64,000 nt of DNA from an uncultured bacterium (GCA_937862935.1 CALMEO010000055.1:19927-83926); one strand, 5' to 3'. Positions 50,007 through 64,000 are shown, counted from the first letter of the stretch. The notes: generated by a model not told the origin, from the sequence alone. Numbers and translations are program-made.

Positions 50007-50696
50007 ATGGTAGTATATAAAATTACATGTGAGAAAGATGGTAGGTCGTATATTGGAGCTACAATTAACTCACATCATAGGAGATTAGAACATTTTAACC
50101 ATCTTAGAAAAAATAGACATCATAATATTTTTTTACAAAGAGCTTTTAATAAGTACGGAGAGGAGTCTTTTACTTATGAAATTTTAGAAAGGTTTAAAGA
50201 TCTGGAAAAAATGTGGAATAGAGAGGAGGAACTTGTAAATACGTTACCTAACCTGTATAATATGATGCCCGGAGGTATTAGAGGACCTCGAATGTACGGT
50301 AAAGATAATCCGAAATTTGGAAAACCAATTTCAGAGCAACAGAGAAGATTACAGAGTGAAGCTATGTCAGGGGAAAATCATCCTCAATTTGGAAAATCAT
50401 ACTATAATAACGGAGAACAACAGGTGGTACTTTCAAAACAAGAAGTAGAAAAGTACTTAAAACAAGGGTGGAAGAAAGGTAGGTTAGATACAAGAGGTCA
50501 AAATAATCCAATGCATACCCATAATATTGATTTTTCAGGAATCAATAATCCAAATGTAAAACATTATAAAGACTTTGAAAAAATTGAAGACTTAAGAAGT
50601 AAAAAGAAAACTTGGAATGAAATAGCCAAGGAGTTGGGTAAAAAAAGTCCTGAAGCTTTGCGAAAATCATATACAAACTTTAAAAAATTAAAATAG
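50007..50696 (+). CDS. GIY-YIG homing endonuclease
   Basis: VVYKITCEKDGRSYIG...RRLEH; four NUMOD3-like G.xNP.xGK repeats. Confidence 0.85.
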   Translation: MVVYKITCEKDGRSYIGATINSHHRRLEHFNHLRKNRHHNIFLQRAFNKYGEESFTYEILERFKDLEKMWNREEELVNTLPNLYNMMPGGIRGPRMYGKDNPKFGKPISEQQRRLQSEAMSGENHPQFGKSYYNNGEQQVVLSKQEVEKYLKQGWKKGRLDTRGQNNPMHTHNIDFSGINNPNVKHYKDFEKIEDLRSKKKTWNEIAKELGKKSPEALRKSYTNFKKLK

Positions 50697-52936: not shown

Positions 52937-53623
52937 ATGCATTACGTATATATTACTACAAATCTTATTAACAAGAAATACTATATAGGAAAACATAAAG
53001 GAGAAGTTGATGATAGGTATCTTGGATCAGGAGTAGTTTTAAAGCAAGCTATAGAAAAATACGGAAAAGATAATTTTGAAAAAGAAATCTTAGTAATTTG
53101 TTCAACAGAGGAAGAAGCTAATCACTGGGAGAGAATCACTATACAGGAACATCTATCAGATCCAAACTGCTACAATATCGCCCCAGGAGGAGAGGGAGGT
53201 TATACAATTAAGCATTTTTCTGAAGAAGAAAAACAGAAAGTAAGGCAGAAAGCATCAAAAAGTTATAAACAGTACATAATATCTCACCCAGAGGAAGTAA
53301 AATCTCGGCAGGAGAGACAAAAAGTAACGTTACTTTCCAATATAGAAAATCATAGAAAAGCTGTTAAAGAAGGTCTACTGACGAGATCGGAAGAAGACAA
53401 GAAAGCACAGCATGAAAAGATAACACAGAAAAAATTAGATAACGGATACTACAGTGAATATCAGTTAATAGATCCGGAAGGAAATACGGTAATGCAAAGT
53501 ATTGGAGCAGAAAATATTGCAAAAAAATACGGAGCAACACCTAATGGGATACGATTAGCTGCTAAACACAGACAGCCTATTTCAAGAGGAGTATTAAAAG
53601 GGTATAAAGTAGTAAAAATTTAA
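52937..53623 (+). CDS. GIY-YIG homing endonuclease
   Basis: HYVYITTNLINKKYYIGKH...YLGSG. Confidence 0.85.
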   Translation: MHYVYITTNLINKKYYIGKHKGEVDDRYLGSGVVLKQAIEKYGKDNFEKEILVICSTEEEANHWERITIQEHLSDPNCYNIAPGGEGGYTIKHFSEEEKQKVRQKASKSYKQYIISHPEEVKSRQERQKVTLLSNIENHRKAVKEGLLTRSEEDKKAQHEKITQKKLDNGYYSEYQLIDPEGNTVMQSIGAENIAKKYGATPNGIRLAAKHRQPISRGVLKGYKVVKI

Positions 53624-54444: not shown

Positions 54445-54557
54445 AGTCAGGTGGCGGAAAGGTAAACGCTCACAGGTTGGTATTGTAAAAGAGGAATTGA
54501 CCTCCATCTCCATGTTTTAATGGTTATACCTTACAGGTTCAAATCCTGTCCTGACTA
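54445..54557 (+). tRNA. oversized tRNA-like gene (113 nt), anticodon unresolved
   Basis: Acceptor AGTCAGG/CCTGACT, D arm GCG-GAAAGGTAAA-CGC, T arm ACAGG-TTCAAAT-CCTGT, CAAA trailer; the middle holds a branched GGTAT...ATACC domain with two 6-nt-loop hairpins. Confidence 0.4.
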
Positions 54558-54561
54558 CAAA

Positions 54562-54647
54562 GATCATTTAGTGTAAGTAGCAATTCATGCTCATAGGTAA
54601 CACGGTGTCGTGAACACCAGATGAGAGTTCGAGTCCCTCAATGATCT
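54562..54647 (+). tRNA. aberrant tRNA-like gene (86 nt), anticodon unresolved
   Basis: Acceptor GATCATT/AATGATC, T arm GAGAG-TTCGAGT-CCCTC, CAAAAT trailer; GTGT...ACAC helix encloses a 25-nt loop; GGTGT-CGTGA-ACACC hairpin has a 5-nt loop. Confidence 0.35.
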
Positions 54648-54976: not shown

Positions 54977-54985
54977 TGAAAAAAA

Positions 54986-55057
54986 AGTTGGTAGATTGAA
55001 ATATTATCACTATATTTAAAGTATAGAAATAAGGTCATTGACATATTGGATAAAATT
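54986..55057 (+). repeat. about 72-bp dispersed repeat, copy 1 (promoter-like)
   Basis: About 90 percent identical by eye to 61360..61432; contains TTGGTA-N17-TATATT and TTGACA. Confidence 0.8.
54988..55016 (+). promoter_or_regulatory. sigma70-like TTGGTA-N17-TATATT element (copy B)
   Basis: Follows a terminator; 44 nt upstream of tRNA-Ser; part of a 72-bp repeat. Confidence 0.45.
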
Positions 55058-55059
55058 AA

Positions 55060-55147
55060 GGAGAGTGAAGCAGCGCCATGGAGGTGCGACTAGTCTTGAA
55101 AACTAGGTCCCGTCTTTTCGGGTGGGGTTCGAGTCCTCCGCTCTCCG
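55060..55147 (+). tRNA. tRNA-Ser(UGA)
   Basis: Acceptor GGAGAGT/GCTCTCC, anticodon stem CTAGT/ACTAG, loop CT-TGA-AA, long variable arm CCCG..CGGG, T loop TTCGAGT. Confidence 0.85.
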
Positions 55148-55153
55148 CAATAT

Positions 55154-55225
55154 TGGGTTATAGTGTAATGGTTAGCACAAAACACTTTGGCTGTTTTAGT
55201 CTAGGTTCGAATCCTAGTAAGCCAA
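55154..55225 (+). tRNA. tRNA-Gln(UUG)
   Basis: Acceptor TGGGTTA/TAAGCCA (U1-A72, one G.G mismatch), stem AAACA/TGTTT, loop CT-TTG-GC, T arm CTAGG-TTCGAAT-CCTAG. Confidence 0.8.
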
Positions 55226-55240
55226 CCGAGTGCTGTTTTT

Positions 55241-55273
55241 GTATTTCCTTCCTATTTATTAGAAAGGAAGTAC
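55241..55273 (+). promoter_or_regulatory. hairpin enclosing the promoter box upstream of the GIY-YIG gene
   Basis: GTATTTCCTT pairs with AAGGAAGTAC, 10 bp including one G.U; ATG at 55277. Confidence 0.5.
55252..55259 (+). promoter_or_regulatory. CTATTTAT box inside a hairpin loop
   Basis: 18 nt upstream of the GIY-YIG ATG 55277. Confidence 0.5.
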
Positions 55274-55276
55274 ATC

Positions 55277-55957
55277 ATGGCAAAAAGAGTATACGGTACA
55301 AGAAAAAAATATCATTTTATTTATAAAACTACAAATTTACTAAGTGGAAGATACTATATAGGAATGCATTCAACAGATGACCTGAATGACGGATATTTAG
55401 GATCGGGTACATTATTAAGAAGATCTATAAAAAAGCACGGTAAAGAAAACTTTAAAATAGAGATCTTAGAATTTTTAGATTCAAGGGAAGCTTTAGTAGC
55501 AAGAGAAAAAGAGATCATATCTCTTCAAGAAATTGCTAAGAAAGAATGTATGAATTTAAAAGTAGGAGGAGAAGGAGGATTCTCCAGCGAAGAGCATAAA
55601 CAAAAATTCCTACAAGGACGAGAGTGGGGAAAGCTTTTAGGAGCTAAAACAGGAGGAGATCTTAGACGAGGAGTAGGTTTAGAAAGCACACACAGAGCTC
55701 TGATTAGTTTAAAAATGAAAGAACACTATACAACAAATATAGGACACTTCAGCAATAAAACACATTCAGAACAGACTAAGAAAAAAATGTCAAATGCTAA
55801 AAAAGGAAAAGGATTAGCACAGACTAATTCACAATACGGAACTTGTTGGATCACCGATGAGTATTCCAATAAAAAAATAATAAAAGGAGAAACAATCCCA
55901 GAAGGATGGAGATTAGGAAGAAAAATAAAAAAGCAATCCCTCTGCCACGGGTATTAG
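55277..55957 (+). CDS. GIY-YIG homing endonuclease
   Basis: YHFIYKTTNLLSGRYYIGMH...GYLGSG; C-terminal WITDE...PEGWRLGRKIK; last 10 nt overlap tRNA-Pro. Confidence 0.85.
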   Translation: MAKRVYGTRKKYHFIYKTTNLLSGRYYIGMHSTDDLNDGYLGSGTLLRRSIKKHGKENFKIEILEFLDSREALVAREKEIISLQEIAKKECMNLKVGGEGGFSSEEHKQKFLQGREWGKLLGAKTGGDLRRGVGLESTHRALISLKMKEHYTTNIGHFSNKTHSEQTKKKMSNAKKGKGLAQTNSQYGTCWITDEYSNKKIIKGETIPEGWRLGRKIKKQSLCHGY

Positions 55958-56023
55958 AGGAGTCCGGTCTATCTCGCTGCATTTGGGATGCAGAGCACGC
56001 AGGTTCGAATCCTGCATACCCGA
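55948..56023 (+). tRNA. tRNA-Pro(UGG)
   Basis: Acceptor CGGGTAT/ATACCCG, stem CTGCA/TGCAG, loop TT-TGG-GA, T arm GCAGG-TTCGAAT-CCTGC. Confidence 0.85.
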
Positions 56024-56081
56024 CGAGTGAGACTGTTACTAATTCATAGAACTATAGAGTGTTTGCATAGAATTAGATTAT

Positions 56082-56153
56082 TCCCTCGTAGCAAATCGGT
56101 ATAGGCAATAGACTTTTAATCTATGGGATCAGGTTCAACTCCTGACGGGGGAA
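56082..56153 (+). tRNA. tRNA-Lys(UUU)
   Basis: Acceptor TCCCTCG/CGGGGGA, stem ATAGA/TCTAT, loop CT-TTT-AA, T arm TCAGG-TTCAACT-CCTGA. Confidence 0.8.
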
Positions 56154-56243
56154 CAAAAATCAACTAGTCACTGTAAAACCAGTGGGCGTCAGTAAGTATT
56201 CTGAGCGACGTTTAAATCCTGAAAGCAATTGTTGATTTTATTT

Positions 56244-56314
56244 GCCTCGATGATGTAATGGTAGCGTCGTTGTTTTACATGCAACAGGTGGAAGTTCGAT
56301 TCTTTCTCGAGGTA
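56244..56314 (+). tRNA. tRNA-Val(UAC)
   Basis: Acceptor GCCTCGA/TCGAGGT, stem GTTGT/GCAAC, loop TT-TAC-AT, T arm GGAAG-TTCGATT-CTTTC. Confidence 0.85.
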
Positions 56315-56360
56315 CTGTAGACTTTTTGAAAAGTTAGCCTATTCATTATAAACAGTAGAT
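56315..56360 (+). repeat. conserved GIY-YIG 5' flank, copy 1 (after tRNA-Val)
   Basis: CTGTAGACTTTTTGAAAAGTTAGCCTATTCATT... Confidence 0.9.
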
Positions 56361-57005
56361 ATGGCTAACATCAAAGAGAATAAAAAATACCACTACACTT
56401 ATAAGACAACAAATCTTATAAATGGTAGATATTATCTGGGAATGCACTCAACTAACCGTTTAGATGACGGTTACTTAGGAAGTGGTAAAAGACTTTATTA
56501 TGAATTAAATAAATACGGTAGAGACAATTTTAAGTTTGAACTACTAGAGCAATTTAATTCAAGAGAGGAATTAGTTCAAGCTGAAATTAATCTAATAACA
56601 GAACAAGATTTAAAAAATATAAACTGTTTAAACCTGAGTAAAGGAGGTAGTGGTGGTATTCATAACGAGGATCATTACAAGGCTTTTGTAAAAGGACCTA
56701 AGAATACAAGTGGGTGGATCTTGAACATGAAAAACCTAAAAGCAAACCCAGAATGGGTGAAATGGCATAGGGAATTAGTTATAAAAGGTCTTAGAGAGTA
56801 TTACAAAGTTTCAGAAGGACCTTTTAAAGGTAAGCAACATAAACCTGAGACTATTGAAAAAATGAAAGCGTCTCACAAAGGAGCAGGGAAAGGAACTAAT
56901 AATTCTCAATATGGTACTTGTTGGATTACAAACGAAACAGAAAATAAAAAAAATATACAAAGGAGATCTAATCCCAGAAGGTTGGAGATTGGGACGAAAA
57001 ATTAA
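56361..57005 (+). CDS. GIY-YIG homing endonuclease, C-terminus frameshifted in an A8 run
   Basis: MANIKENKKYHYTYKTTNLINGRYYLGMH; the paralogue-like ending IPEGWRLGRKIK is encoded in the +1 frame after 56946..56953. Confidence 0.75.
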   Translation: MANIKENKKYHYTYKTTNLINGRYYLGMHSTNRLDDGYLGSGKRLYYELNKYGRDNFKFELLEQFNSREELVQAEINLITEQDLKNINCLNLSKGGSGGIHNEDHYKAFVKGPKNTSGWILNMKNLKANPEWVKWHRELVIKGLREYYKVSEGPFKGKQHKPETIEKMKASHKGAGKGTNNSQYGTCWITNETENKKNIQRRSNPRRLEIGTKN

Positions 57006-57012
57006 ATAAACT

Positions 57013-57091
57013 GGGGTTATTGAGCAGGTGGTGAGCTCAGCGGTCTGTAAAATCGTGATTATTCTTGTAGGTTCGATTCCTACTAGCCCCA
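57013..57091 (+). tRNA. tRNA-Tyr(GUA)
   Basis: Acceptor GGGGTTA/TAGCCCC, D arm GAGC..GCTC, stem GCGGT/ATCGT, loop CT-GTA-AA, 10-nt variable region, T arm GTAGG-TTCGATT-CCTAC. Confidence 0.8.
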
Positions 57092-57158
57092 CAGTCAAAT
57101 TTTCTAACGTATGAAAAAACATTCAGTCTTCTAAGTACTAATCGTAACTTAGAAAAAG

Positions 57159-57434
57159 ATGTCAAGAAGTCGAAAAAAACCTTACTGTAAGGATAAGGGA
57201 ATGTCAACACAGGAATATTGGAAAGTTATCCGACATGAGTGGAAACAAACACTAAAACAAAATTATTGGAAAGATAGTTTGTACTTTAGAAACCCTGAGG
57301 AGATAATTAATGATTGGACAAGATGTGATTACATTTGGTTCATTAAAGAAAGTAGACCTTACTGGGGTGATGAAGAACCGATGCACTGGTTTGGATACAC
57401 TAAAGAAGATGTTAAAAAATACTCTAGAAAATAG
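57159..57434 (+). CDS. hypothetical Trp/Lys-rich small protein
   Basis: 91-aa ORF between tRNA-Tyr and tRNA-Phe. Confidence 0.5.
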   Translation: MSRSRKKPYCKDKGMSTQEYWKVIRHEWKQTLKQNYWKDSLYFRNPEEIINDWTRCDYIWFIKESRPYWGDEEPMHWFGYTKEDVKKYSRK

Positions 57435-57441
57435 GGTACTC

Positions 57442-57514
57442 GGAGCAGTGGCAGATCAGGTGATTGCGCTAGTCTGAAAAACTAGAGGAACGAGATCGTT
57501 ACTCGTCTGCTCCA
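57442..57514 (+). tRNA. tRNA-Phe(GAA)
   Basis: Acceptor GGAGCAG/CTGCTCC, stem CTAGT/ACTAG, loop CT-GAA-AA, T arm ACGAG-ATCGTTA-CTCGT (unusual A54/T58). Confidence 0.75.
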
Positions 57515-57626
57515 CAAAGTAGTTCTTGTCCCTTGTAAGGTGTGAAAGAATATATAAACGGTTTTTGCAGGTTCAAATCCTGGGTCTTGCAACTTTTTGC
57601 AAGTAGAACCGTGAGAATTACGAATT

Positions 57627-57698
57627 GGATTGTTAGCTCAGAGGCAGAGCGGTTGTTTGTTAGGCAACGGGTCGGGATTTCGAAATTCCCACAATCCT
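57627..57698 (+). tRNA. tRNA-Asn(GUU)
   Basis: Acceptor GGATTGT/ACAATCC, D arm GCTC-AGAGGCA-GAGC, stem GTTGT/GCAAC, loop TT-GTT-AG. Confidence 0.85.
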
Positions 57699-57704
57699 CA
57701 AAAT

Positions 57705-57776
57705 TGCTCTATCGTATAAAGGTTATTACGGATGACTGTTAATCATTTTATCTAGGTTCAAGTCCTAGTGGAGCAG
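57705..57776 (+). tRNA. tRNA-Asn(GUU), second copy with a divergent body
   Basis: Acceptor TGCTCTA/TGGAGCA, stem GATGA/TCATT, loop CT-GTT-AA, T arm CTAGG-TTCAAGT-CCTAG. Confidence 0.65.
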
Positions 57777-57897
57777 CAAGGGGTGTTAGTATCTCCTGAC
57801 GGGTTTAGATGTGTAACTTTCCCTCCAACAACTAACATTATAATTGGATTAATAAGGAACAACTCTTCGTAAGGTTATCAGATTAAACGTTACAACT

Positions 57898-57969
57898 GCT
57901 CCTATAGTAGAATGGTTAGCACACATCTCTGATAAGGATGAAATGGAGGTTCAATTCCTTCTAGGAGTA
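57898..57969 (+). tRNA. tRNA-Ile(GAU)
   Basis: Acceptor GCTCCTA/TAGGAGT, stem CATCT/GGATG, loop CT-GAT-AA, T arm GGAGG-TTCAATT-CCTTC. Confidence 0.8.
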
Positions 57970-57976
57970 CAGAAAT

Positions 57977-58063
57977 GGAGAATAGTCTAATATTGGTTTG
58001 TAGTGGCATCCTGCTAAGATGTTCCTGGTAAAACAGGTGAGAGTTCGATTCTCTTGTTCTCCG
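57977..58063 (+). tRNA. tRNA-Ser(GCU)
   Basis: Acceptor GGAGAAT/GTTCTCC, stem GCATC/GATGT, loop CT-GCT-AA, variable arm CCTG-GTAAAA-CAGG, T loop TTCGATT. Confidence 0.85.
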
Positions 58064-58192
58064 CAAAAACCTGTTCCCCGTCCTCACAAAGCATCTAAGG
58101 AATGCAGGAGTAGAATAGTACGTTCGGGGCCTTGTGGTAGGACACTTTAAAATCTAAAGTACAAAGATAAGTTAACAGGTTCTTATCAAATT

Positions 58193-58261
58193 GCCGAAGG
58201 ATCAGGTGATCGAGAATGGCTCATATCCGTTTTCAGGGTGGATCGTTACCACTCTTCGGTA
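58193..58261 (+). tRNA. tRNA-Met(CAU) (or Ile2/lysidine type), compact 69 nt
   Basis: Acceptor GCCGAAG/CTTCGGT, stem AATGG/CCGTT, loop CT-CAT-AT, T arm GGTGG-ATCGTTA-CCACT, short D arm. Confidence 0.65.
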
Positions 58262-58363
58262 CAAAAAATATCTAGGTAACAACCTGAGTTAAAGAAAGAA
58301 CTGGTTCACTCCTTCGTAATATTGTAACCCGCGGCTACAAAAAAGAAGAGGTATTTTTTACAC

Positions 58364-58437
58364 GGTGTATGTAGCTAAATGGTAAAGCGCTTGATTGTGG
58401 TTCAAGTCATTTGCGGGTTCAAGTCCCGTCGTACACC
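58364..58437 (+). tRNA. tRNA-His(GUG) with encoded G-1
   Basis: G-1 opposite C73, acceptor GTGTATG/CGTACAC, stem CTTGA/TCAAG, loop TT-GTG-GT, T arm GCGGG-TTCAAGT-CCCGT. Confidence 0.85.
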
Positions 58438-58571
58438 CAACAAATTAAGAAAAAGCTAATGGAGCTGTAAGTTAATAAGCAACCGGGATGGTGGATTTAA
58501 TCCTGGTGCGAAAAGTAAAACCAGAGGGATAAGTCCAATAAAAACCTCAAAAACTTACCTTAATTTTAAAT

Positions 58572-58644
58572 GCCTCTGTGGTGGAATGGAAGACACAACG
58601 AGTTTAAGCCTCGTACGCTGCAGGTTCGACTCCTGTCAGAGGTA
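58572..58644 (+). tRNA. tRNA-Leu(UAA) with a short (5-nt) variable loop
   Basis: Acceptor GCCTCTG/CAGAGGT, Leu-type D arm GTG-GAATGGAAGA-CAC, stem ACGAG/CTCGT, loop TT-TAA-GC, variable ACGCT, A73. Confidence 0.75.
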
Positions 58645-58896
58645 CAAAAAATTAAAGTGACGGAATTAGACGTTAAGAGAGATGAAGTGTTTATAACATC
58701 AGGTTGCGACTGGTGTATGTAAAACCAAGTTAAACTACCGTTAACTAAGTTTCTAGTACGAAGATTGATCCTCGTCGCAGAAGAAGTAGTATTAGAGATG
58801 TACCACAGGGGTTATAGACAATTATAACTGTTGGGTTTAGGTCGAAATGTTTAACATGTAGGTACCCAGTCCTACCTTTAATTTTTATTAACTATT

Positions 58897-59193
58897 ATGA
58901 AAGAGTTACCAGATACATTTAAGGAGTATATCATATATCAGTTAGAATATGGTAAAATCAAGATGTGTAGTGCATTTACTAGTCTGTTTTTTCATAAAGG
59001 ATATACAGGATTTAGGTACAGAGAGGTCTACAGTTTAGTGCAAGATGAAATTAGGAGATTTCGTACTGAAGAAGGTGTAAAAAGGAAGGAACAAGAACGT
59101 CTGTTAGAGGAAAAGAAACGGATGGCTAATCAACAGAGAAGTCTAAGTATGAAACGTTATTGGGAGCATAAGAAAAATTTCAAACAGGTTTAA
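58897..59193 (+). CDS. hypothetical small basic protein
   Basis: 98-aa ORF within the tRNA island. Confidence 0.5.
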   Translation: MKELPDTFKEYIIYQLEYGKIKMCSAFTSLFFHKGYTGFRYREVYSLVQDEIRRFRTEEGVKRKEQERLLEEKKRMANQQRSLSMKRYWEHKKNFKQV

Positions 59194-59269
59194 ACACTAA
59201 AGAAGTAAATTATTTAAACTCAAGGAATCGGGCATATGAAAAAGTGACTTCTAACTTAATGTTAAAAAT

Positions 59270-59341
59270 GGTCCTATAGTTTAATTGGAAAAATTTAAGA
59301 ATACGAATCTTAGGTTAGGGGTTCGAATCCTCTTAGGACTT
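59270..59341 (+). tRNA. tRNA-Arg(ACG)
   Basis: Acceptor GGTCCTA/TAGGACT, stem TAAGA/TCTTA, loop AT-ACG-AA, T arm AGGGG-TTCGAAT-CCTCT. Confidence 0.8.
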
Positions 59342-59352
59342 CAAAAAAGATT

Positions 59353-59423
59353 GCCCTATTAGTTTAACGGAAGAACATATCTCTTCTAAAGATAGAGTCT
59401 TGGTTCGAGTCCAAGATGGGGTT
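59353..59423 (+). tRNA. tRNA-Arg(UCU)
   Basis: Acceptor GCCCTAT/ATGGGGT, stem TATCT/AGATA, loop CT-TCT-AA, T arm CTTGG-TTCGAGT-CCAAG. Confidence 0.8.
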
Positions 59424-59427
59424 CAAT

Positions 59428-59487
59428 ATATATGTAAAAACATATAAAAAAGTTAATATTAGGTAATTTATATGTTTTTACATATAT
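59428..59487. repeat. perfect 21-bp inverted repeat with an 18-nt spacer
   Basis: ATATATGTAAAAACATATAAA (59428..59448) versus TTTATATGTTTTTACATATAT (59467..59487). Confidence 0.9.
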
Positions 59488-59503
59488 CTAAAAATTTACT
59501 AAT

Positions 59504-59574
59504 ACGTCAGTGGTGTAATGGTAACATACCGGTCTCCAAAACCGACGATAAGAGTTCGAATCTCTTTTGACGTG
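59504..59574 (+). tRNA. tRNA-Trp(CCA)
   Basis: Acceptor ACGTCAG/TTGACGT, anticodon arm CCGGT-CTCCAAA-ACCGA (as in bacterial tRNA-Trp), T arm AAGAG-TTCGAAT-CTCTT. Confidence 0.8.
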
Positions 59575-59618
59575 CTGTAGACTTTTTGAAAAGTTAGCCT
59601 ATTTATTGAAAAATAAGT
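59575..59618 (+). repeat. conserved GIY-YIG 5' flank, copy 2 (after tRNA-Trp)
   Basis: CTGTAGACTTTTTGAAAAGTTAGCCTATTTATT... Confidence 0.9.
59599..59606 (+). promoter_or_regulatory. CTATTTAT box
   Basis: 13 nt upstream of the GIY-YIG ATG 59619. Confidence 0.5.
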
Positions 59619-60269
59619 ATGGCTAACATCAAAGAGAATAAAAAATATCATTTTACATATAAGACAACAAATCTTATAAACAAAAGGTATTACTTAGGGA
59701 TGCATTCAACTAACCGTTTAGATGACGGATATATAGGAAGCGGTAAAAGACTTTATTACGAATTAAACAAATACGGTAAAGAGAATTTTAAATTTGAAAT
59801 ACTAAAACAGTTTAATTCAAGGGAGCAGTTAGTTGAAGCTGAAACAAGCTTAATAAGTGAAGAAGTTTTGAAAGATCCAAACTGTCTTAACATGGTAGTA
59901 GGAGGTTCAGGAGGAAATGTAGGTAAAGGAGGAGAGCACTTAGGAGGAGATTGCTGGGCAGCTGCTAATAAATATTGGAAAACAGAAGAAGGATTCAAAA
60001 AGAAATCAGAGACTGCAAAAAAAGTAGCTAAGAGAAGAATACAAGAGGGTACTTGGAATGTCTTTCAAAAAGGAAACCAGGTATGGAAAGGAAGAAAGCA
60101 TACACCTGAGACTATTGAAAAAATGAAAGAGACAAAAAAAGGTCATGGGAAAGGTATAAATAATTCACAATTTGGAAAATGTTGGATAACTAACGAAGTT
60201 GAAAGTAAGAAAATTCACAAAGGAGAACTAATTCCAGAAGGATGGAGATTAGGCCGAAAGATAAAATAA
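59619..60269 (+). CDS. GIY-YIG homing endonuclease
   Basis: MANIKENKKYHFTYKTTNLINKRYYLGMH...GYIGSG; ends PEGWRLGRKIK. Confidence 0.85.
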   Translation: MANIKENKKYHFTYKTTNLINKRYYLGMHSTNRLDDGYIGSGKRLYYELNKYGKENFKFEILKQFNSREQLVEAETSLISEEVLKDPNCLNMVVGGSGGNVGKGGEHLGGDCWAAANKYWKTEEGFKKKSETAKKVAKRRIQEGTWNVFQKGNQVWKGRKHTPETIEKMKETKKGHGKGINNSQFGKCWITNEVESKKIHKGELIPEGWRLGRKIK

Positions 60270-60329
60270 CTTTGGCATGAAAAAAGAATTTGATGCTCAC
60301 TAGGTTTATTAACCTAAAAGTGAGCAAAA

Positions 60330-60515
60330 ATGCGAATTAAACATTATACTAACAGAGAGTATAAAAAACAAAAACGTAGAGAGTATCCGGAATGGGATAA
60401 ATGGTTTGAGGATAACTGGAGTAAAAAGTCTAAAATATGGGCTTTCAAGTACAGAGAATACAGAACATGGAAACATAGCCGAAAAACTCAATACAAAACT
60501 AAATTGTTTCATTAA
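60330..60515 (+). CDS. hypothetical small basic protein
   Basis: 61-aa Lys/Arg/Trp-rich ORF. Confidence 0.4.
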   Translation: MRIKHYTNREYKKQKRREYPEWDKWFEDNWSKKSKIWAFKYREYRTWKHSRKTQYKTKLFH

Positions 60516-60526
60516 AAAAGGAAATC

Positions 60527-61033
60527 ATGAGTAAGTACAGAAAAACACTCGTAGTGGATTCAAGCTTTATTGCAAGAAGCATTATACCTGCTGAAAGAGC
60601 ATTCGTGATTTCATATAAAGGTAATGCTGAAGTAATTGCTGATCACCCAGAATCGTTTGGGTTAGTAAATCCTGAATTAGACATTAAAAAACCTTCAATC
60701 ATCAGGGTTTTTAAGTTTGTAAAGCAAAACATTCTAAAAGTACCTCTTACAAGAGAGAATATCTACAGAAGAGATAATTATGAATGTGTTTACTGTGGAA
60801 GTGATAATGTCAAAACATTAACATTGGACCACGTAATACCTCAATCAAAAGGAGGAAAAGACAGTTGGGATAATCTAGTTACAGCTTGTAAAAGATGCAA
60901 TGGTGAAAAGTCAGACTTAACATTAGAGGAATATGGAAAAGAAATTCCAACTCCATACCGTCCACATTACTTAATGTTAATGAAACAGATGCATGACATC
61001 CCAGAAGAATGGAAACATTTTTTATTATTTTAG
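60527..61033 (+). CDS. HNH endonuclease
   Basis: CVYCGS...LDHVIPQSKGGKDSWDNLVTACKRCNGEKSD. Confidence 0.85.
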   Translation: MSKYRKTLVVDSSFIARSIIPAERAFVISYKGNAEVIADHPESFGLVNPELDIKKPSIIRVFKFVKQNILKVPLTRENIYRRDNYECVYCGSDNVKTLTLDHVIPQSKGGKDSWDNLVTACKRCNGEKSDLTLEEYGKEIPTPYRPHYLMLMKQMHDIPEEWKHFLLF

Positions 61034-61036
61034 GAT

Positions 61037-61195
61037 ATGGAATTTTACAAAATAGGTAACACAAAACTTGAATTAGGATTTCGTAAGCTGTTACAAATGT
61101 CAGACAGAAAAGCTAGAATAGAAGGAATTGAAAAACTAACAAAAACCAAAATTATTATTGAAAATAATAATGTATTTATAATATGGTTAAAATAA
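61037..61195 (+). CDS. small hypothetical protein (52 aa), not in ORF track
   Basis: ATG 4 nt after the HNH gene stop. Confidence 0.35.
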   Translation: MEFYKIGNTKLELGFRKLLQMSDRKARIEGIEKLTKTKIIIENNNVFIIWLK

Positions 61196-61270
61196 AACAC
61201 CTGCTACGTAGTCACTACAGGACAATACGTACAGACAGGGAAGAAAAGATCAGCCCAGGTGTTTTAAATT

Positions 61271-61340
61271 GGCTTGTCTGGTCTTGGAGGCCGGTTGGAT
61301 TGCAAACCCAATAGAGACAGTTCGATTCTGTCACAAGCCT
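61271..61340 (+). tRNA. tRNA-Cys(GCA)
   Basis: Acceptor GGCTTGT/ACAAGCC, loop TT-GCA-AA, T arm GACAG-TTCGATT-CTGTC, U73 discriminator. Confidence 0.8.
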
Positions 61341-61359
61341 CAAAAAGAGTTTTAAAAAT

Positions 61360-61432
61360 AGTTGGTAGATTAAAATATTATCACTATATTAAAAGTATAA
61401 TAATAAGGTCATTGACATATTGGATAAAATTT
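61360..61432 (+). repeat. about 72-bp dispersed repeat, copy 2
   Basis: See 54986..55057. Confidence 0.8.
61362..61390 (+). promoter_or_regulatory. sigma70-like TTGGTA-N17-TATATT element (copy C)
   Basis: Part of the 72-bp repeat, upstream of the Leu-Thr-Gly-Glu tRNA run. Confidence 0.45.
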
Positions 61433-61654
61433 AAGACATTAAATTAACATAGTCGTCACTAGCAGGCGTATTAATCTTTCCGTTATAGACTAAGCGGTCG
61501 TAATGTAGTGTTACATCTCAATAAAACGAGATTGGATCCGATTTAGAAACAAGTACATGTTTCCTTATCTGATTTGGAGTAACTCCTTAGGATGCTTTTT
61601 TAAAGATTGAATATTTTAGGTAATCCAATTCCTATTGACTATGTTAATTAAAAT

Positions 61655-61728
61655 TGCTCCGGTGGTGGAATTGGTAGACACGCTTGACTTAGGATCAAGA
61701 TATTGAGGGTTCGAATCCCTCCTGGAGT
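61655..61728 (+). tRNA. tRNA-Leu(UAG) with a short (5-nt) variable loop
   Basis: Acceptor GCTCCGG/CTGGAGT, canonical Leu D arm GTG-GAATTGGTAGA-CAC, stem CTTGA/TCAAG, loop CT-TAG-GA, variable ATATT, A73. Confidence 0.75.
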
Positions 61729-61800
61729 ACAAAATTAGAGTTAGCTTATAGTAAAGCACCTGAAAAGGATAACGGATACGAAAACCGGCTCTAATTAATT

Positions 61801-61872
61801 TGCCGCTAAAGCATAAAAGGTGATGCACTTGTTTTGTACACAAGACAACGGAGTTCGATTCTTCGTAGCGGC
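61801..61872 (+). tRNA. tRNA-Thr(UGU)
   Basis: Acceptor GCCGCTA/TAGCGGC, D arm GCAT..ATGC, stem CTTGT/ACAAG, loop TT-TGT-AC. Confidence 0.85.
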
Positions 61873-61879
61873 TCAAAAA

Positions 61880-61951
61880 TGCGAATGTCGTATAATGGAT
61901 ATTATTTTTGACTTCCAATCAAAAGATGGCAGTTCGATTCTGCTCATTCGC
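61880..61951 (+). tRNA. tRNA-Gly(UCC)
   Basis: Acceptor GCGAATG/CATTCGC, stem TTTGA/TCAAA, loop CT-TCC-AA, T arm GGCAG-TTCGATT-CTGCT. Confidence 0.85.
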
Positions 61952-62079
61952 TCAAAATTTACCTCAGAGAGGATAAGTTGTGAGGCTACCGTACCTTGGC
62001 ACTTACAACCGTAATGGGGACTTGCAAGGTCTTTAATCCCAAGAGTAAAAGGACGTGAGGGATTGGGTAAATTTTTAAC

Positions 62080-62151
62080 TGCTACCGTCGTCTAACGGCT
62101 AGGACATAACACTTTCACTGTTAAAAAGAGGGTTCGATTCCCTTCGGTAGT
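62080..62151 (+). tRNA. tRNA-Glu(UUC)
   Basis: Acceptor GCTACCG/CGGTAGT, D arm GTCT..GGAC, stem TAACA/TGTTA, loop CT-TTC-AC. Confidence 0.85.
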
Positions 62152-62218
62152 ACAATGTACTTTTTTCATAATTGATTTATTTAATGTAAATTGATATTTA
62201 TTTTTAAATAAATCAATT

Positions 62219-63769
62219 ATGAAGAAGTTAATTACATTAATTTTGTTAATACTTACAACATTAACATACAGTCAAAATAACCTGGTGGTTGATTATTCAC
62301 CAAGTTCTGAAGTAATTGCAAACCCTGAGAGAGGTTTTCACAAATTTACAGAAACCACTTCTACAAGTTACAGTTTTCTTAATCAAACTAGTTTAAATGG
62401 GTACAGAACAGGTGTTGATAAAATTACCATGGTCTATAGAGGGTTTTACCTAGAGAGTTTCATGAATTCATCAATAAGTCAAGCATACTTAAGTAATATG
62501 CAAACAGACTTTAGTACTTTGAGAAATGCTGGGGTAAAAGCAACTATTAGGTTTGGGTATTACACAAGTTCACAAACAGGACCATACCAACCGTCTAAAG
62601 CACAGATAATATCACATATACAACAGTTAGCTCCAATTATAAACTCCAATAAAGATGTTATACTTTCTATTCAAATAGGGTTTATTGGTAGATGGGGCGA
62701 GTATTATTATACAAATTCAACAGAGTTTGGAAATGGAGACTATACAGCATATACATCACTACAATGGCAAAATAGGAAAGAAGTTTTAGATGCATGTTTT
62801 AGTAATTTTGACAGTTCTATTTTTATACAGTTAAGATACCCTTATGCTAAAACAAAAATGTATGGAAACGTTTACATTCCAAGACTGGGGTATTTTAATG
62901 ATGCTTTTTTAAATGTATATGGTGATGAAGGGTTTTTTCCTATTTGTCAAACATGTACTCCAAGTCAGTCTCAAATAAATGAGGTGATTCTGCAGACGGA
63001 AAACAATCCAATGACGGGTGAAACAAACTCAGTAAATTCCCTGACAAATGGAACAAATGCAATAACACAAATGGATTTGTTTAATTGGAGTATAATAAAT
63101 AGAGATTATTATCCGCAAGCGATACAACAGTGGCAGACTGATGGAAGTTTTAGTACTATAATTAATAGGCTTGGTTATAGGTTTAAATTAAATAAAGGAA
63201 TCTATTACCTAAATAATAATGTTTTAGATGTAAATATTTCAACTTCTAATGAAGGTTTTTCAAAAATACTTAAAGAAAAGAATGTTAACATTATTTTAAA
63301 GAGTAGTTTAAATACCTATTACTTTCCATTAGAATATAATGTTAAGAATTGGGGAAATAACATCATAGAAAGTATAAATATTTCCGGGATAATAGATGGA
63401 GTGTATAATGTATATTTAGAGATAGTTGACAAAGATTTACCCAACAATGTTAACTATAAAGTACATTTAGCTAACTCTAACATATGGGATTCAGTTAATG
63501 GATACAATGATTTGAAGTTTACCATAAACAAATCCGGTTCAGGTAGTTTAGGAAATGTGTTAAATTCAATTCCCACTTTAAATGTATATCCAAATCCAAC
63601 TACAGGTATTGTGTATTTACCTTATAAGCTAAGTTATAAGGTGTATAACAGTAATAACAAACTTATAAAAAGTGGTACAGGTACACAGGTTAATATTTCA
63701 AATAAACCGAATGGTATTTACTTTTTAAAGATAGAAGGATTTCAAACAATAAAGATAATCAAACAGTAA
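62219..63769 (+). CDS. secreted DUF4874/DUF4832-like putative glycoside hydrolase with T9SS C-terminal sorting domain
   Basis: Signal peptide MKKLITLILLILTTLTYSQ; NPERGF and GFIGRWGEYYY motifs; C-terminus LNVYPNPTTGIVYL...NGIYFLKIEGFQTIKIIKQ. Confidence 0.65.
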   Translation: MKKLITLILLILTTLTYSQNNLVVDYSPSSEVIANPERGFHKFTETTSTSYSFLNQTSLNGYRTGVDKITMVYRGFYLESFMNSSISQAYLSNMQTDFSTLRNAGVKATIRFGYYTSSQTGPYQPSKAQIISHIQQLAPIINSNKDVILSIQIGFIGRWGEYYYTNSTEFGNGDYTAYTSLQWQNRKEVLDACFSNFDSSIFIQLRYPYAKTKMYGNVYIPRLGYFNDAFLNVYGDEGFFPICQTCTPSQSQINEVILQTENNPMTGETNSVNSLTNGTNAITQMDLFNWSIINRDYYPQAIQQWQTDGSFSTIINRLGYRFKLNKGIYYLNNNVLDVNISTSNEGFSKILKEKNVNIILKSSLNTYYFPLEYNVKNWGNNIIESINISGIIDGVYNVYLEIVDKDLPNNVNYKVHLANSNIWDSVNGYNDLKFTINKSGSGSLGNVLNSIPTLNVYPNPTTGIVYLPYKLSYKVYNSNNKLIKSGTGTQVNISNKPNGIYFLKIEGFQTIKIIKQ

Positions 63770-63837
63770 TTAAACCATATACCGGTTTTAATAATACATT
63801 GAAAGCATGTAGAATTGAAGTCGAGGTACTGTAAAAT

Positions 63838-63910
63838 GGGTCGGTAGCATAAATGGCAAATGCGCTTGATTTGCAATCAGGAAGATTGGGTTCGAATCCC
63901 ACCGTATCCA
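63838..63910 (+). tRNA. tRNA-Ala(UGC) with an imperfect acceptor stem
   Basis: G1-C72, G2-C71, G3.U70 and U4-A69 are present; the inner acceptor pairs need a bulged T; D arm GCAT..ATGC; loop TT-TGC-AA. Confidence 0.65.
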
Positions 63911-63955
63911 CTGTAGACTTTTTGAAAAGTTAGCCTATTTATTTAAAAAATAGAT
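63911..63955 (+). repeat. conserved GIY-YIG 5' flank, copy 3 (after tRNA-Ala)
   Basis: CTGTAGACTTTTTGAAAAGTTAGCCTATTTATT... Confidence 0.9.
63935..63942 (+). promoter_or_regulatory. CTATTTAT box
   Basis: 14 nt upstream of the GIY-YIG ATG 63956. Confidence 0.5.
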
Positions 63956-64000
63956 ATGGCTAATTTCAAAGAGAATAAAAAGTACCACTACACGTATAAG
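63956..64000 (+). CDS. GIY-YIG homing endonuclease, 5' fragment (runs off the window)
   Basis: MANFKENKKYHYTYK, same N-terminus and same 45-bp upstream block as 56361 and 59619. Confidence 0.75.
   Translation, partial: MANFKENKKYHYTYK

Follow-up and report, generated by a model that had tools for sequence, protein, structure and literature searches.

Why does the same short sequence stand directly behind three different tRNA genes, each time followed by a similar open reading frame (ORF)? The question is raised by a stretch of 64,000 nucleotides (nt) from an uncultured bacterium (GCA_937862935.1, CALMEO010000055.1:19927-83926; the whole stretch is here referred to as "the window"), in which a block of 33 nt, CTGTAGACTTTTTGAAAAGTTAGCCTATT(T/C)ATT, occurs three times on the + strand, at 56315, 59575 and 63911. 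The contig concerned (C55, 104.6 kb) was binned into a 1.3-Mb assembly and is that of a phage, with a T4-type portal protein 83% identical to the portal of Flavobacterium phage vB_FspM_immuto. An original prediction, made from the window alone, had proposed that an endonuclease gene moves here together with its expression signals and inserts at, or cleaves near, the 3' ends of tRNA genes. The answer that we reach, with a probability of roughly 80%, is that each repeat forms the 5' leader of a free-standing GIY-YIG homing-endonuclease gene of the SegB family, and that such genes have colonised the tRNA array of an uncultured Flavobacterium-type myophage.

Position of the cassettes in the tRNA array

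Exact matches of CTGTAGACTTTTTGAAAAGTTAGCCTATTYATT lie at the same three + strand positions, and none was obtained in 100 dinucleotide-preserving shuffles. The tRNA model of Infernal, which stops at the discriminator, places the 3' ends of the upstream genes at 56314 (Val), 59574 (Trp) and 63910 (Ala), and on these ends the block does start at tRNA position 74, directly after the discriminator, as had been predicted. ARAGORN drew the same ends for tRNA-Val and tRNA-Trp with one extra C added, and for tRNA-Ala it chose another acceptor register, ending at 63909. Together with C74, the three genes, all on the + strand, are tRNA-Val(tac) at 56244..56315 (discriminator A at 56314) and tRNA-Trp(cca) at 59504..59575 (discriminator G at 59574), both called by ARAGORN and Infernal, and tRNA-Ala(tgc) at 63838..63911 (discriminator A at 63910), whose acceptor stem is irregular.

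The start of the block is not, however, the start of the inserted DNA. C74 and an A-rich spacer ("...N73 C|AAAAT") follow nearly every tRNA of the related arrays, in filled and empty slots alike. Since cassette-free sites also have C74, the inserted DNA begins one base later, with TGTAGAC (GGTAGAC in contig L006 of the IMG/VR database), and the boundary predicted after the discriminator has to be moved to just after C74. When counted from position 74, the "45-bp flank" measures 46 nt in copy 1, 44 nt in copy 2 and 45 nt in copy 3. As a side observation, the tRNA genes of the window array (55154-64000) and of the related loci have no encoded CCA, and nearly all of them are followed by C74 and the C|AAAAT spacer, a pattern that may serve as a common signal for 3' processing, belong to the target of the endonuclease, or do both.

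Alignment of the three regions, a check suggested with the prediction, showed that similarity extends from just after the tRNA to the stop codon. We then compared this array with those of relatives. The exact 24-mer of the leader was found on 12 IMG/VR contigs, each time directly behind a tRNA, and a search with the N-terminal codons added a further contig, L219. These cassettes (class A, including those of L219 and L020) stand behind 11 tRNA species, namely Gln, Val, Tyr, Ile, Ser-gct, Ser-tga, Leu-taa, Arg-tct, Trp, Glu and Ala, and each begins directly after C74. The gene order of the arrays is conserved (Ser-Gln-Pro-Lys-Val-Tyr-Phe-Asn-Ile-Ser-His-Leu-Arg-Arg-(Trp)-HNH-Cys-Leu-Thr-Gly-Glu-Ala-Asp-Met-Met), and the occupied slots vary by genome.

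Filled and empty alleles of the same slot can be compared directly. In L006 a leader and ORF are inserted exactly between the counterparts of window positions 58064 and 58065, behind tRNA-Ser(gct) (57977..58064, + strand), where the window is empty, and the flanks on both sides of the cassette are 87-94% identical to the window. Moreover, the 173-kb contig L222, 100% complete according to CheckV, has a syntenic array with 0 cassettes; its empty spacers read Gln-9 nt-Pro, Val-AAAAATT-Tyr and Ala-68 nt-Asp, and its Trp-like tRNA is followed directly by the HNH gene. Among complete relatives, then, G001 (the contig of L222) carries 0 cassettes and G002 (the contig of L009) carries one, behind Val. 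At the right end, the stop codon of the ORF lies 2-7 nt before the next tRNA in compact slots, as in the Val-cassette-3 nt-Tyr arrangement of L009, and the ORF overlaps the next tRNA in two cases, the window copy c0 described below and the L013 copy. Over the IMG/VR loci as a whole, 36 of 47 distinct SegB-like genes start ≤70 nt after a tRNA of the same strand.

Because the same leader and ORF are found behind 11 tRNA species and are missing from a complete relative, the mobile unit is the leader plus the ORF. It amounts to about 0.7 kb, a leader of 43-45 nt and one ORF, in the spacer between two tRNA genes, with its left end directly after C74 of the upstream tRNA and its right end at the stop codon or a few nt from it. 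Both central claims of the original prediction, that the gene moves as one unit with its own expression signals and that it inserts at tRNA 3' ends, are supported by the limits of similarity and by these filled and empty alleles; in the comparison with relatives lacking individual cassettes, which had been proposed beforehand, the insertion points sit at tRNA ends with syntenic flanks. With about 26 tRNA ends in roughly 10 kb, the chance that one insertion hits the same relative base is about 0.003, so that coincidence is very unlikely for three of three insertions and far more so for 11 slots. Assembly chimeras were rejected as the source of the slot changes, both flanks being syntenic in all six contigs checked (L004, L006, L009, L010, L013 and L219). 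An insert of about 0.7 kb with a single GIY-YIG ORF also differs from an integrase-borne element that targets an attachment site in a tRNA gene, and no repeat of the tRNA 3' end was found at the right junction of the window copies or in the comparisons with L006 and L222.

Some slots show further peculiarities. The acceptor of tRNA-Ala(tgc) (63838-63910) pairs a 5' strand GGGTCGG with a 3' strand CCGTATCC, with two mismatches or a bulged U, and the T stem has 4 bp. We rejected the idea that this is a chimeric scar of imprecise homing, as the identical allele occurs at the empty site of L222; since L222 and L223 share this acceptor, although the tRNA-Ala of L223 differs in other respects, the stem seems to be functional and not damaged. 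Between tRNA-Glu and tRNA-Ala lies a DUF4874/DUF4832 gene with a T9SS sorting domain (62154-63837), which is an insertion into the array because the two tRNA genes are only 4 nt apart in L222. A weak resemblance to the cassette leader (62%, repeat family D3) is seen in the 37 nt that follow tRNA-Glu. The 13-mer TCGAGGTACTGTA, made up of the 3' acceptor strand of tRNA-Val, A73, C74 and the first 4 nt of the leader, has a second exact copy at 63821-63833, just after the DUF4874 gene and 4 nt upstream of tRNA-Ala (0.04 expected), and this copy may be a fossil of a Val-cassette junction. Finally, about 258 nt between c2, the cassette ORF behind tRNA-Trp, and the HNH gene (60270-60526) contain a hairpin and an ORF for a basic protein of 61 amino acids (aa; 60330-60515); they are absent where tRNA-Trp directly precedes the HNH gene (L010, L012, L014 and L222), which indicates that this slot gained more than the cassette.

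Relationship of the cassette proteins to SegB

The ORFs behind the three blocks do begin with MAN(I/F)KENKKYH, as predicted. All lie on the + strand. The first, c1 (56361..57005, 214 aa, start MANIKENKKYHYTYK), ends 7 nt before tRNA-Tyr and is frameshifted, and c2 (59619..60269, 216 aa, start MANIKENKKYHFTYK) is intact. The third, c3 (63956..64000, start MANFKENKKYHYTYK), is cut by the window end; on contig C55 it runs on to the window-equivalent position 64606 as an intact ORF of 216 aa, and tRNA-Asp begins 88 nt after it. A fourth, diverged paralogue, c0 (55277..55957, 226 aa), stands behind tRNA-Gln(ttg) (55154..55226, + strand; ARAGORN; 61.8 bits with the Rfam tRNA model), and its last 10 nt overlap tRNA-Pro. 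All four copies are free-standing, with no intron or intein, between the tRNA genes of the phage cluster (ARAGORN counted 21 tRNA genes in the window, against 27 for contig C55 as a whole).

In a tblastn search of 50,697 phage records, the best characterised match of c2 was T4 segB, with 38.5% identity over 96% of the query (E 3e-31). The PHROGs scan, which covered c0 and c2, assigned both to phrog_314, "homing endonuclease" (E 2.7e-42 and 1.1e-38, respectively). In a MAFFT alignment the cassette proteins are collinear with SegB from the first to the last residue, with 36-43% identity (39% for c0, 43% for c2) and 46 invariant columns. These include the tyrosines of the GIY-YIG motif, G19, E67, the C-terminal NSQ.G..WI block and the P, G and K of the tail IPEGW..GRK.K, whose W, R and I are lost in the frameshifted c1. 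The block H(T/K)PETIEKMK is aligned with the NUMOD3 region of SegB. Three Pfam families are matched, GIY-YIG, SegE_GIY-YIG and NUMOD3, with c0 above the cut-off and c1 and c2 just below it. For c0 the scores are 23.4 bits for GIY-YIG (PF01541, cut-off 22.6) and 26.1 bits for NUMOD3; the NUMOD3 score of c1, 16.4, is below the cut-off, and c2 has no NUMOD3 match at E≤0.01. A search of the sequences of PDB chains with the cassette proteins gave only spurious matches to repeat proteins. The GIY-YIG identity that had been assigned to the ORFs therefore holds, in the form of full-length homology to T4 SegB.

SegB itself is well characterised. Its recognition site of 27 bp has the T-arm motif GGTTCRANTCC as its 5' part, and in phage T2L nine tRNA genes are cut by it at their 3' ends, with 2-nt 3' overhangs (PMC2330249). 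It drives its own inheritance in mixed infections (PMC2330249; Brok-Volchanskaya et al. 2008). The segB mRNA is part of a tRNA precursor transcript, a leader hairpin is predicted to occlude the start codon, and this study reports no promoter close by (PMC2330249). The T4 layout, tRNA-Ile, 41 nt, segB, 5 nt, tRNA-Arg, resembles that of the cassettes, whose genes begin 41-46 nt behind a tRNA and abut the next one; both have a predicted leader hairpin over the AUG, and both genes are missing from related phages. Moreover, the documented target of SegB, the T-arm motif with a cut at the tRNA 3' end, matches the insertion point here. Recognition of the tRNA structure at the DNA level, as the original prediction supposed, matches this documented behaviour, and by homology it would apply to the window proteins as well.

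Differences are also clear. The carrier is a Flavobacterium-type myophage and not a member of the Tevenvirinae; an array can hold as many as four copies, where T4 has one, and cassettes stand behind 11 tRNA species; the tRNA genes encode no CCA, so the junction follows C74 and not CCAR; and the predicted cassette hairpin contains a putative promoter box. Phage T5, judged by a published description, likewise has homing-type endonuclease ORFs interleaved with the tRNA genes of its cluster, and processing of the tRNA precursor transcript is believed to limit them (PMC2330249). No SegB-like gene was found in Flavobacterium phage immuto, the closest cultured relative by portal, and nucleotide searches of cultured phages yielded a tRNA-Pro match to Cellulophaga phages but no homologous array. 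When the 15-mer GTAGACTTTTTGAAA was searched against metagenome contigs, the matches listed were all unrelated and none had the leader.

The three copies are paralogues, as had been stated, but they are not closer to one another than to the copies of other genomes and are not recent duplicates. In fact, every window copy is closer to some copy of another genome, at a different slot, than to any other copy in the window; c1, for example, is 94% identical to the Glu-slot copy of L013 over the N-terminal 100 residues, a region in which class-A copies share 75-95% identity. The next 65 or so residues are hypervariable (7-42% identity), except at the Ala slot, where two copies are 84% identical and the window's copy is 28-30% identical to them, and the C-terminal third shows 40-72% identity. 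The idea that the middle region tracks the occupied slot was rejected, as only the Ala-slot copies are related in it (84%, 30% and 28%) and two Val-slot copies are 14% identical.

Signs of decay are seen in two copies. In c1, one extra A in an A8 run at 56946-56953 (A7 in relatives) puts the conserved C-terminal IPEGWRLGRKIK out of frame, and the +1 frame restores the conserved tail KKIYKGDLIPEGWRLGRKIK and its stop; the run could represent a decaying copy, a homopolymer error of the assembly or slippage-dependent expression. In L020 (4102-4299), the ORF of a class-A cassette that follows tRNA-Ile is interrupted by a premature stop 65 codons from its start, beyond which recognisable coding sequence goes on in the same frame. 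The frameshifted c1 and the stopped L020 copy fit the usual invasion-and-decay picture of homing genes.

Predicted leader hairpin and promoter box

In the predicted fold, the leader and the first seven codons form one long hairpin with the AUG in its 3' arm: leader nt 8-15 (CUUUUUGA) pair with codons 5-7 (UCAAAGAG), and nt 19-32 pair with the AUG region. The leader of c1 (56316..56360, + strand) leaves TGTAGAC single-stranded and carries a box variant, CCTATTCAT, at 56339-56347; the hairpin over its AUG (56361-56363) spans 56322..56378, with a predicted energy of -18.6 kcal/mol and a z-score of -4.95. For c2, the leader is at 59576..59618 (+), the box CTATTTATT at 59599-59607 and the predicted hairpin, which has a GAAA loop and covers the AUG at 59619-59621, at 59582..59636 (-23.3 kcal/mol, z -6.16). 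The c3 leader occupies 63912..63955 (+), with the box CTATTTATT at 63935-63943 and a predicted hairpin at 63918..63973 over the AUG at 63956-63958 (-21.8 kcal/mol, z -6.76). The c0 leader (55228..55276, +) differs from class A but shares CCTATTTATT; it has its own predicted hairpin, GUAUUUCCUUCC...GAAAGGAAGUAC (-21.3 kcal/mol, z -3.8), which holds the CCTATTTATT box (55251-55260) in its loop and ends 4 nt before the AUG.

In the consensus fold of 12 distinct leaders all 22 pairs are kept. L010 shows the one compensatory change, from G19-C55 to A-U; ten further changes are one-sided and preserve pairing (counted as cells, over six pairs), and three cells are broken. Predicted folds also bury the AUG in most other leader classes of SegB-like genes, which are unrelated in sequence, and the T4 segB leader itself folds over its AUG (predicted -19.4 kcal/mol, z -6.3).

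On the contig the box CTATTTAT[AT] has 23 copies on the + strand against 2 on the - strand, and 20 of those 23 have an ORF start 3-32 nt downstream. Within the cassettes the box forms part of the 5' arm of the predicted hairpin and precedes the AUG by 11-13 nt. From its distribution it is a candidate for the gene-proximal promoter of the phage group, a reading to which the cassettes lend independent support. The leader may accordingly be modelled as the control module of the gene: in read-through transcripts of the tRNA operon the hairpin would hide the start codon and keep the ORF translationally silent, and transcripts begun at the CTATTTAT box, lacking the 5' arm, would be translatable. By analogy, such a layout would follow a design known for T4 endonuclease genes. 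As in the I-TevI type of promoter-in-hairpin switch, the start codon is predicted to be sequestered in read-through transcripts, and a phage promoter inside or next to the hairpin is predicted to give transcripts without the 5' arm; unlike there, the box is CTATTTAT[AT] and not the T4 late TATAAATA, and codons 1-7 form part of the 3' arm of the predicted hairpin.

An unlikely reading, which nevertheless has points in its favour, is that the leader is conserved mainly as a protein-binding site in DNA, either an operator through which the endonuclease would shut down its own promoter (as with I-TevI) or a source of immunity to re-cutting at the occupied site, with the inverted repeat ACTTTT-TG-AAAAGT as the functional element. 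The first 33 nt of the leader are 97-100% identical among copies, against about 80-89% for the coding regions. TGTAGAC, its first 7 nt, is almost invariant and is unpaired in the predicted fold, and three leader classes retain a TTTTTG motif 11 nt ahead of the box (TTTTTG-N11-TATTTAT), which the phage's other box-bearing genes lack. If the leader is instead the control module of an endonuclease gene, its high conservation arises because structure, promoter and first codons overlap there. The inverted repeat and the box CCTATT(T/C)AT are indeed present in the block, as predicted, but the palindrome is better read as part of the long RNA hairpin that buries the AUG. It is broken in L010 (AAATAT for AAAAGT) and in L219 (AAAAAT), and the L010 change is the one compensated in the long hairpin. 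Since that variant breaks the repeat yet keeps the hairpin, the repeat is probably incidental to the hairpin and is probably not the functional feature. Also, leader classes of unrelated sequence keep the hairpin over the AUG and not the inverted repeat. A DNA site is nonetheless compatible with an RNA switch, and both could hold. TTTTTG was also considered as a general upstream promoter element and rejected, as the contig has only four copies of TTTG-N10-12-TATTTAT and three of these belong to the cassettes.

Two more GIY-YIG homing-endonuclease genes lie outside the tRNA island, at 50007-50696 and 52937-53623 (phrog_314, E 6e-28 and 1e-36); each has a CTATTTATA box in a hairpin loop, and the 3' arm of that hairpin runs up to the AUG.

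Mode of spread and its meaning

How would such a cassette spread? By analogy with SegB, the enzyme would bind the T-arm sequence (GGTTCRANTCC) of tRNA genes and would make a double-strand break at the tRNA gene 3' end in cassette-free genomes; the cut expected at or next to C74|A75 would depend on GTTCGANTC. Recombinational repair from a cassette-bearing genome would then copy the cassette in, and relaxed specificity for any tRNA 3' end would allow the family to occupy many slots. We propose that only insertions which spare the tRNA survive, and that selection therefore fixes the junction at the tRNA 3' end.

Several points weigh against this account. The target specificity of the cassette proteins is derived from their 36-43% identity to SegB, their middle third shows no consistent match to the occupied slot, and the Pfam GIY-YIG scores of c1 (17.6) and c2 (18.4) are below the gathering cut-off of 22.6. 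Covariation in the hairpin is thin, with a single double change among 12 near-identical leaders, and neither the invariance of TGTAGAC nor the retention of TTTTTG is explained. Moreover, classical homing, which needs flanking homology, fails alone to explain single-nucleotide junctions behind 11 tRNAs; there is no co-converted tRNA sequence, and the step of a cassette to a new slot is left unexplained. Possible contributors to this step are microhomology (C74 on the left, and on the right an A-rich ORF tail like the AAAAAT spacer) and selection for intact tRNAs.

The same junctions could come about in a different way, which we consider distinctly improbable: an inter-tRNA unit that enters C74|A75 behind essentially any tRNA without flanking homology. 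Here the catalytic domain would read C74 and the A-rich cut site, the C-terminal domain the T-arm, and the hypervariable middle of about 65 residues would span the variable acceptor stem. If this is true, homology-free entry at C74|A75 would be a site-class-specific mode of insertion, with a natural library of tRNA-end-directed nucleases, that has not been described for GIY-YIG genes.

Passive spread, by recombination among repetitive tRNA genes (such as unequal crossing-over) or by gene duplication, would dispense with homing altogether and would reduce the tRNA adjacency to a matter of tRNA density; we hold this to be very unlikely. It is true that tRNA arrays are recombination-prone, that SegB-linked segmental amplification through microhomology has been reported in phage T6 (PMC13096335), and that the A-rich 3' end of the cassette (CGAAAAAT...) is like the C|AAAAAT spacer. 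However, three of three insertions here and the 11 slots in relatives use the same base after C74, at about 0.003 per insertion, the upstream tRNAs are mutually unrelated and no hybrid tRNAs were seen, the order of the array is kept while the cassettes differ in slot, and most copies are intact and homologous to a proven homing enzyme. Movement through a processed RNA, with the inter-tRNA segment excised by RNase Z and RNase P and copied back at a broken tRNA 3' end, is hardly credible: in compact slots, that of L009 for example, each cassette end does have a tRNA-processing site a few nt away at most, but no reverse transcriptase was noted in the tRNA island (the rest of the contig was not searched for one), the 3' ends vary (258 nt from c2 to the next gene, 88 nt from c3 to tRNA-Asp, and overlap of c0 and the L013 copy with the next tRNA), and selection for intact tRNAs explains the junctions more simply.

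The array has other features apart from the cassettes. ARAGORN missed tRNA-like elements at 54445-54557 (113 nt, possibly with an insert) and 54562-54647, which score 38.5 and 30.8 bits with the Rfam tRNA model, and a long-arm tRNA at 55061-55145 (Rfam tRNA-Sec-like, 36 bits), in the position of tRNA-Ser(tga) of the related arrays. A direct repeat of 90 nt with 89% identity (…GTTGGTAGATTGAAATATTATCACTATATTTAAAGTATA…GGTCATTGACATATTGGATAAAAT…) is found at 54980-55069 and 61354-61443, and the contig has a similar stretch near 66510; a sub-block of tRNA genes follows each copy, and the repeat may be a promoter or regulatory element of tRNA operons.

Taken as a SegB-family homing gene with its leader, the cassette is of an essentially known type, a SegB-type mobile element with a predicted T4-style expression switch. 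Its value lies elsewhere. First, it extends the SegB paradigm from the T-even coliphages to flavobacterial phages of the sea, with the universally conserved T-arm as the probable landing pad. Second, compared with T4, it offers a natural series of filled and empty alleles in 11 slots of one conserved array, with both junctions defined at nucleotide resolution. This series makes it possible to test how a free-standing homing gene reaches a new site without flanking homology and which segment of the protein sets the site preference. Third, the cassettes help explain the mosaic nature of phage tRNA arrays.

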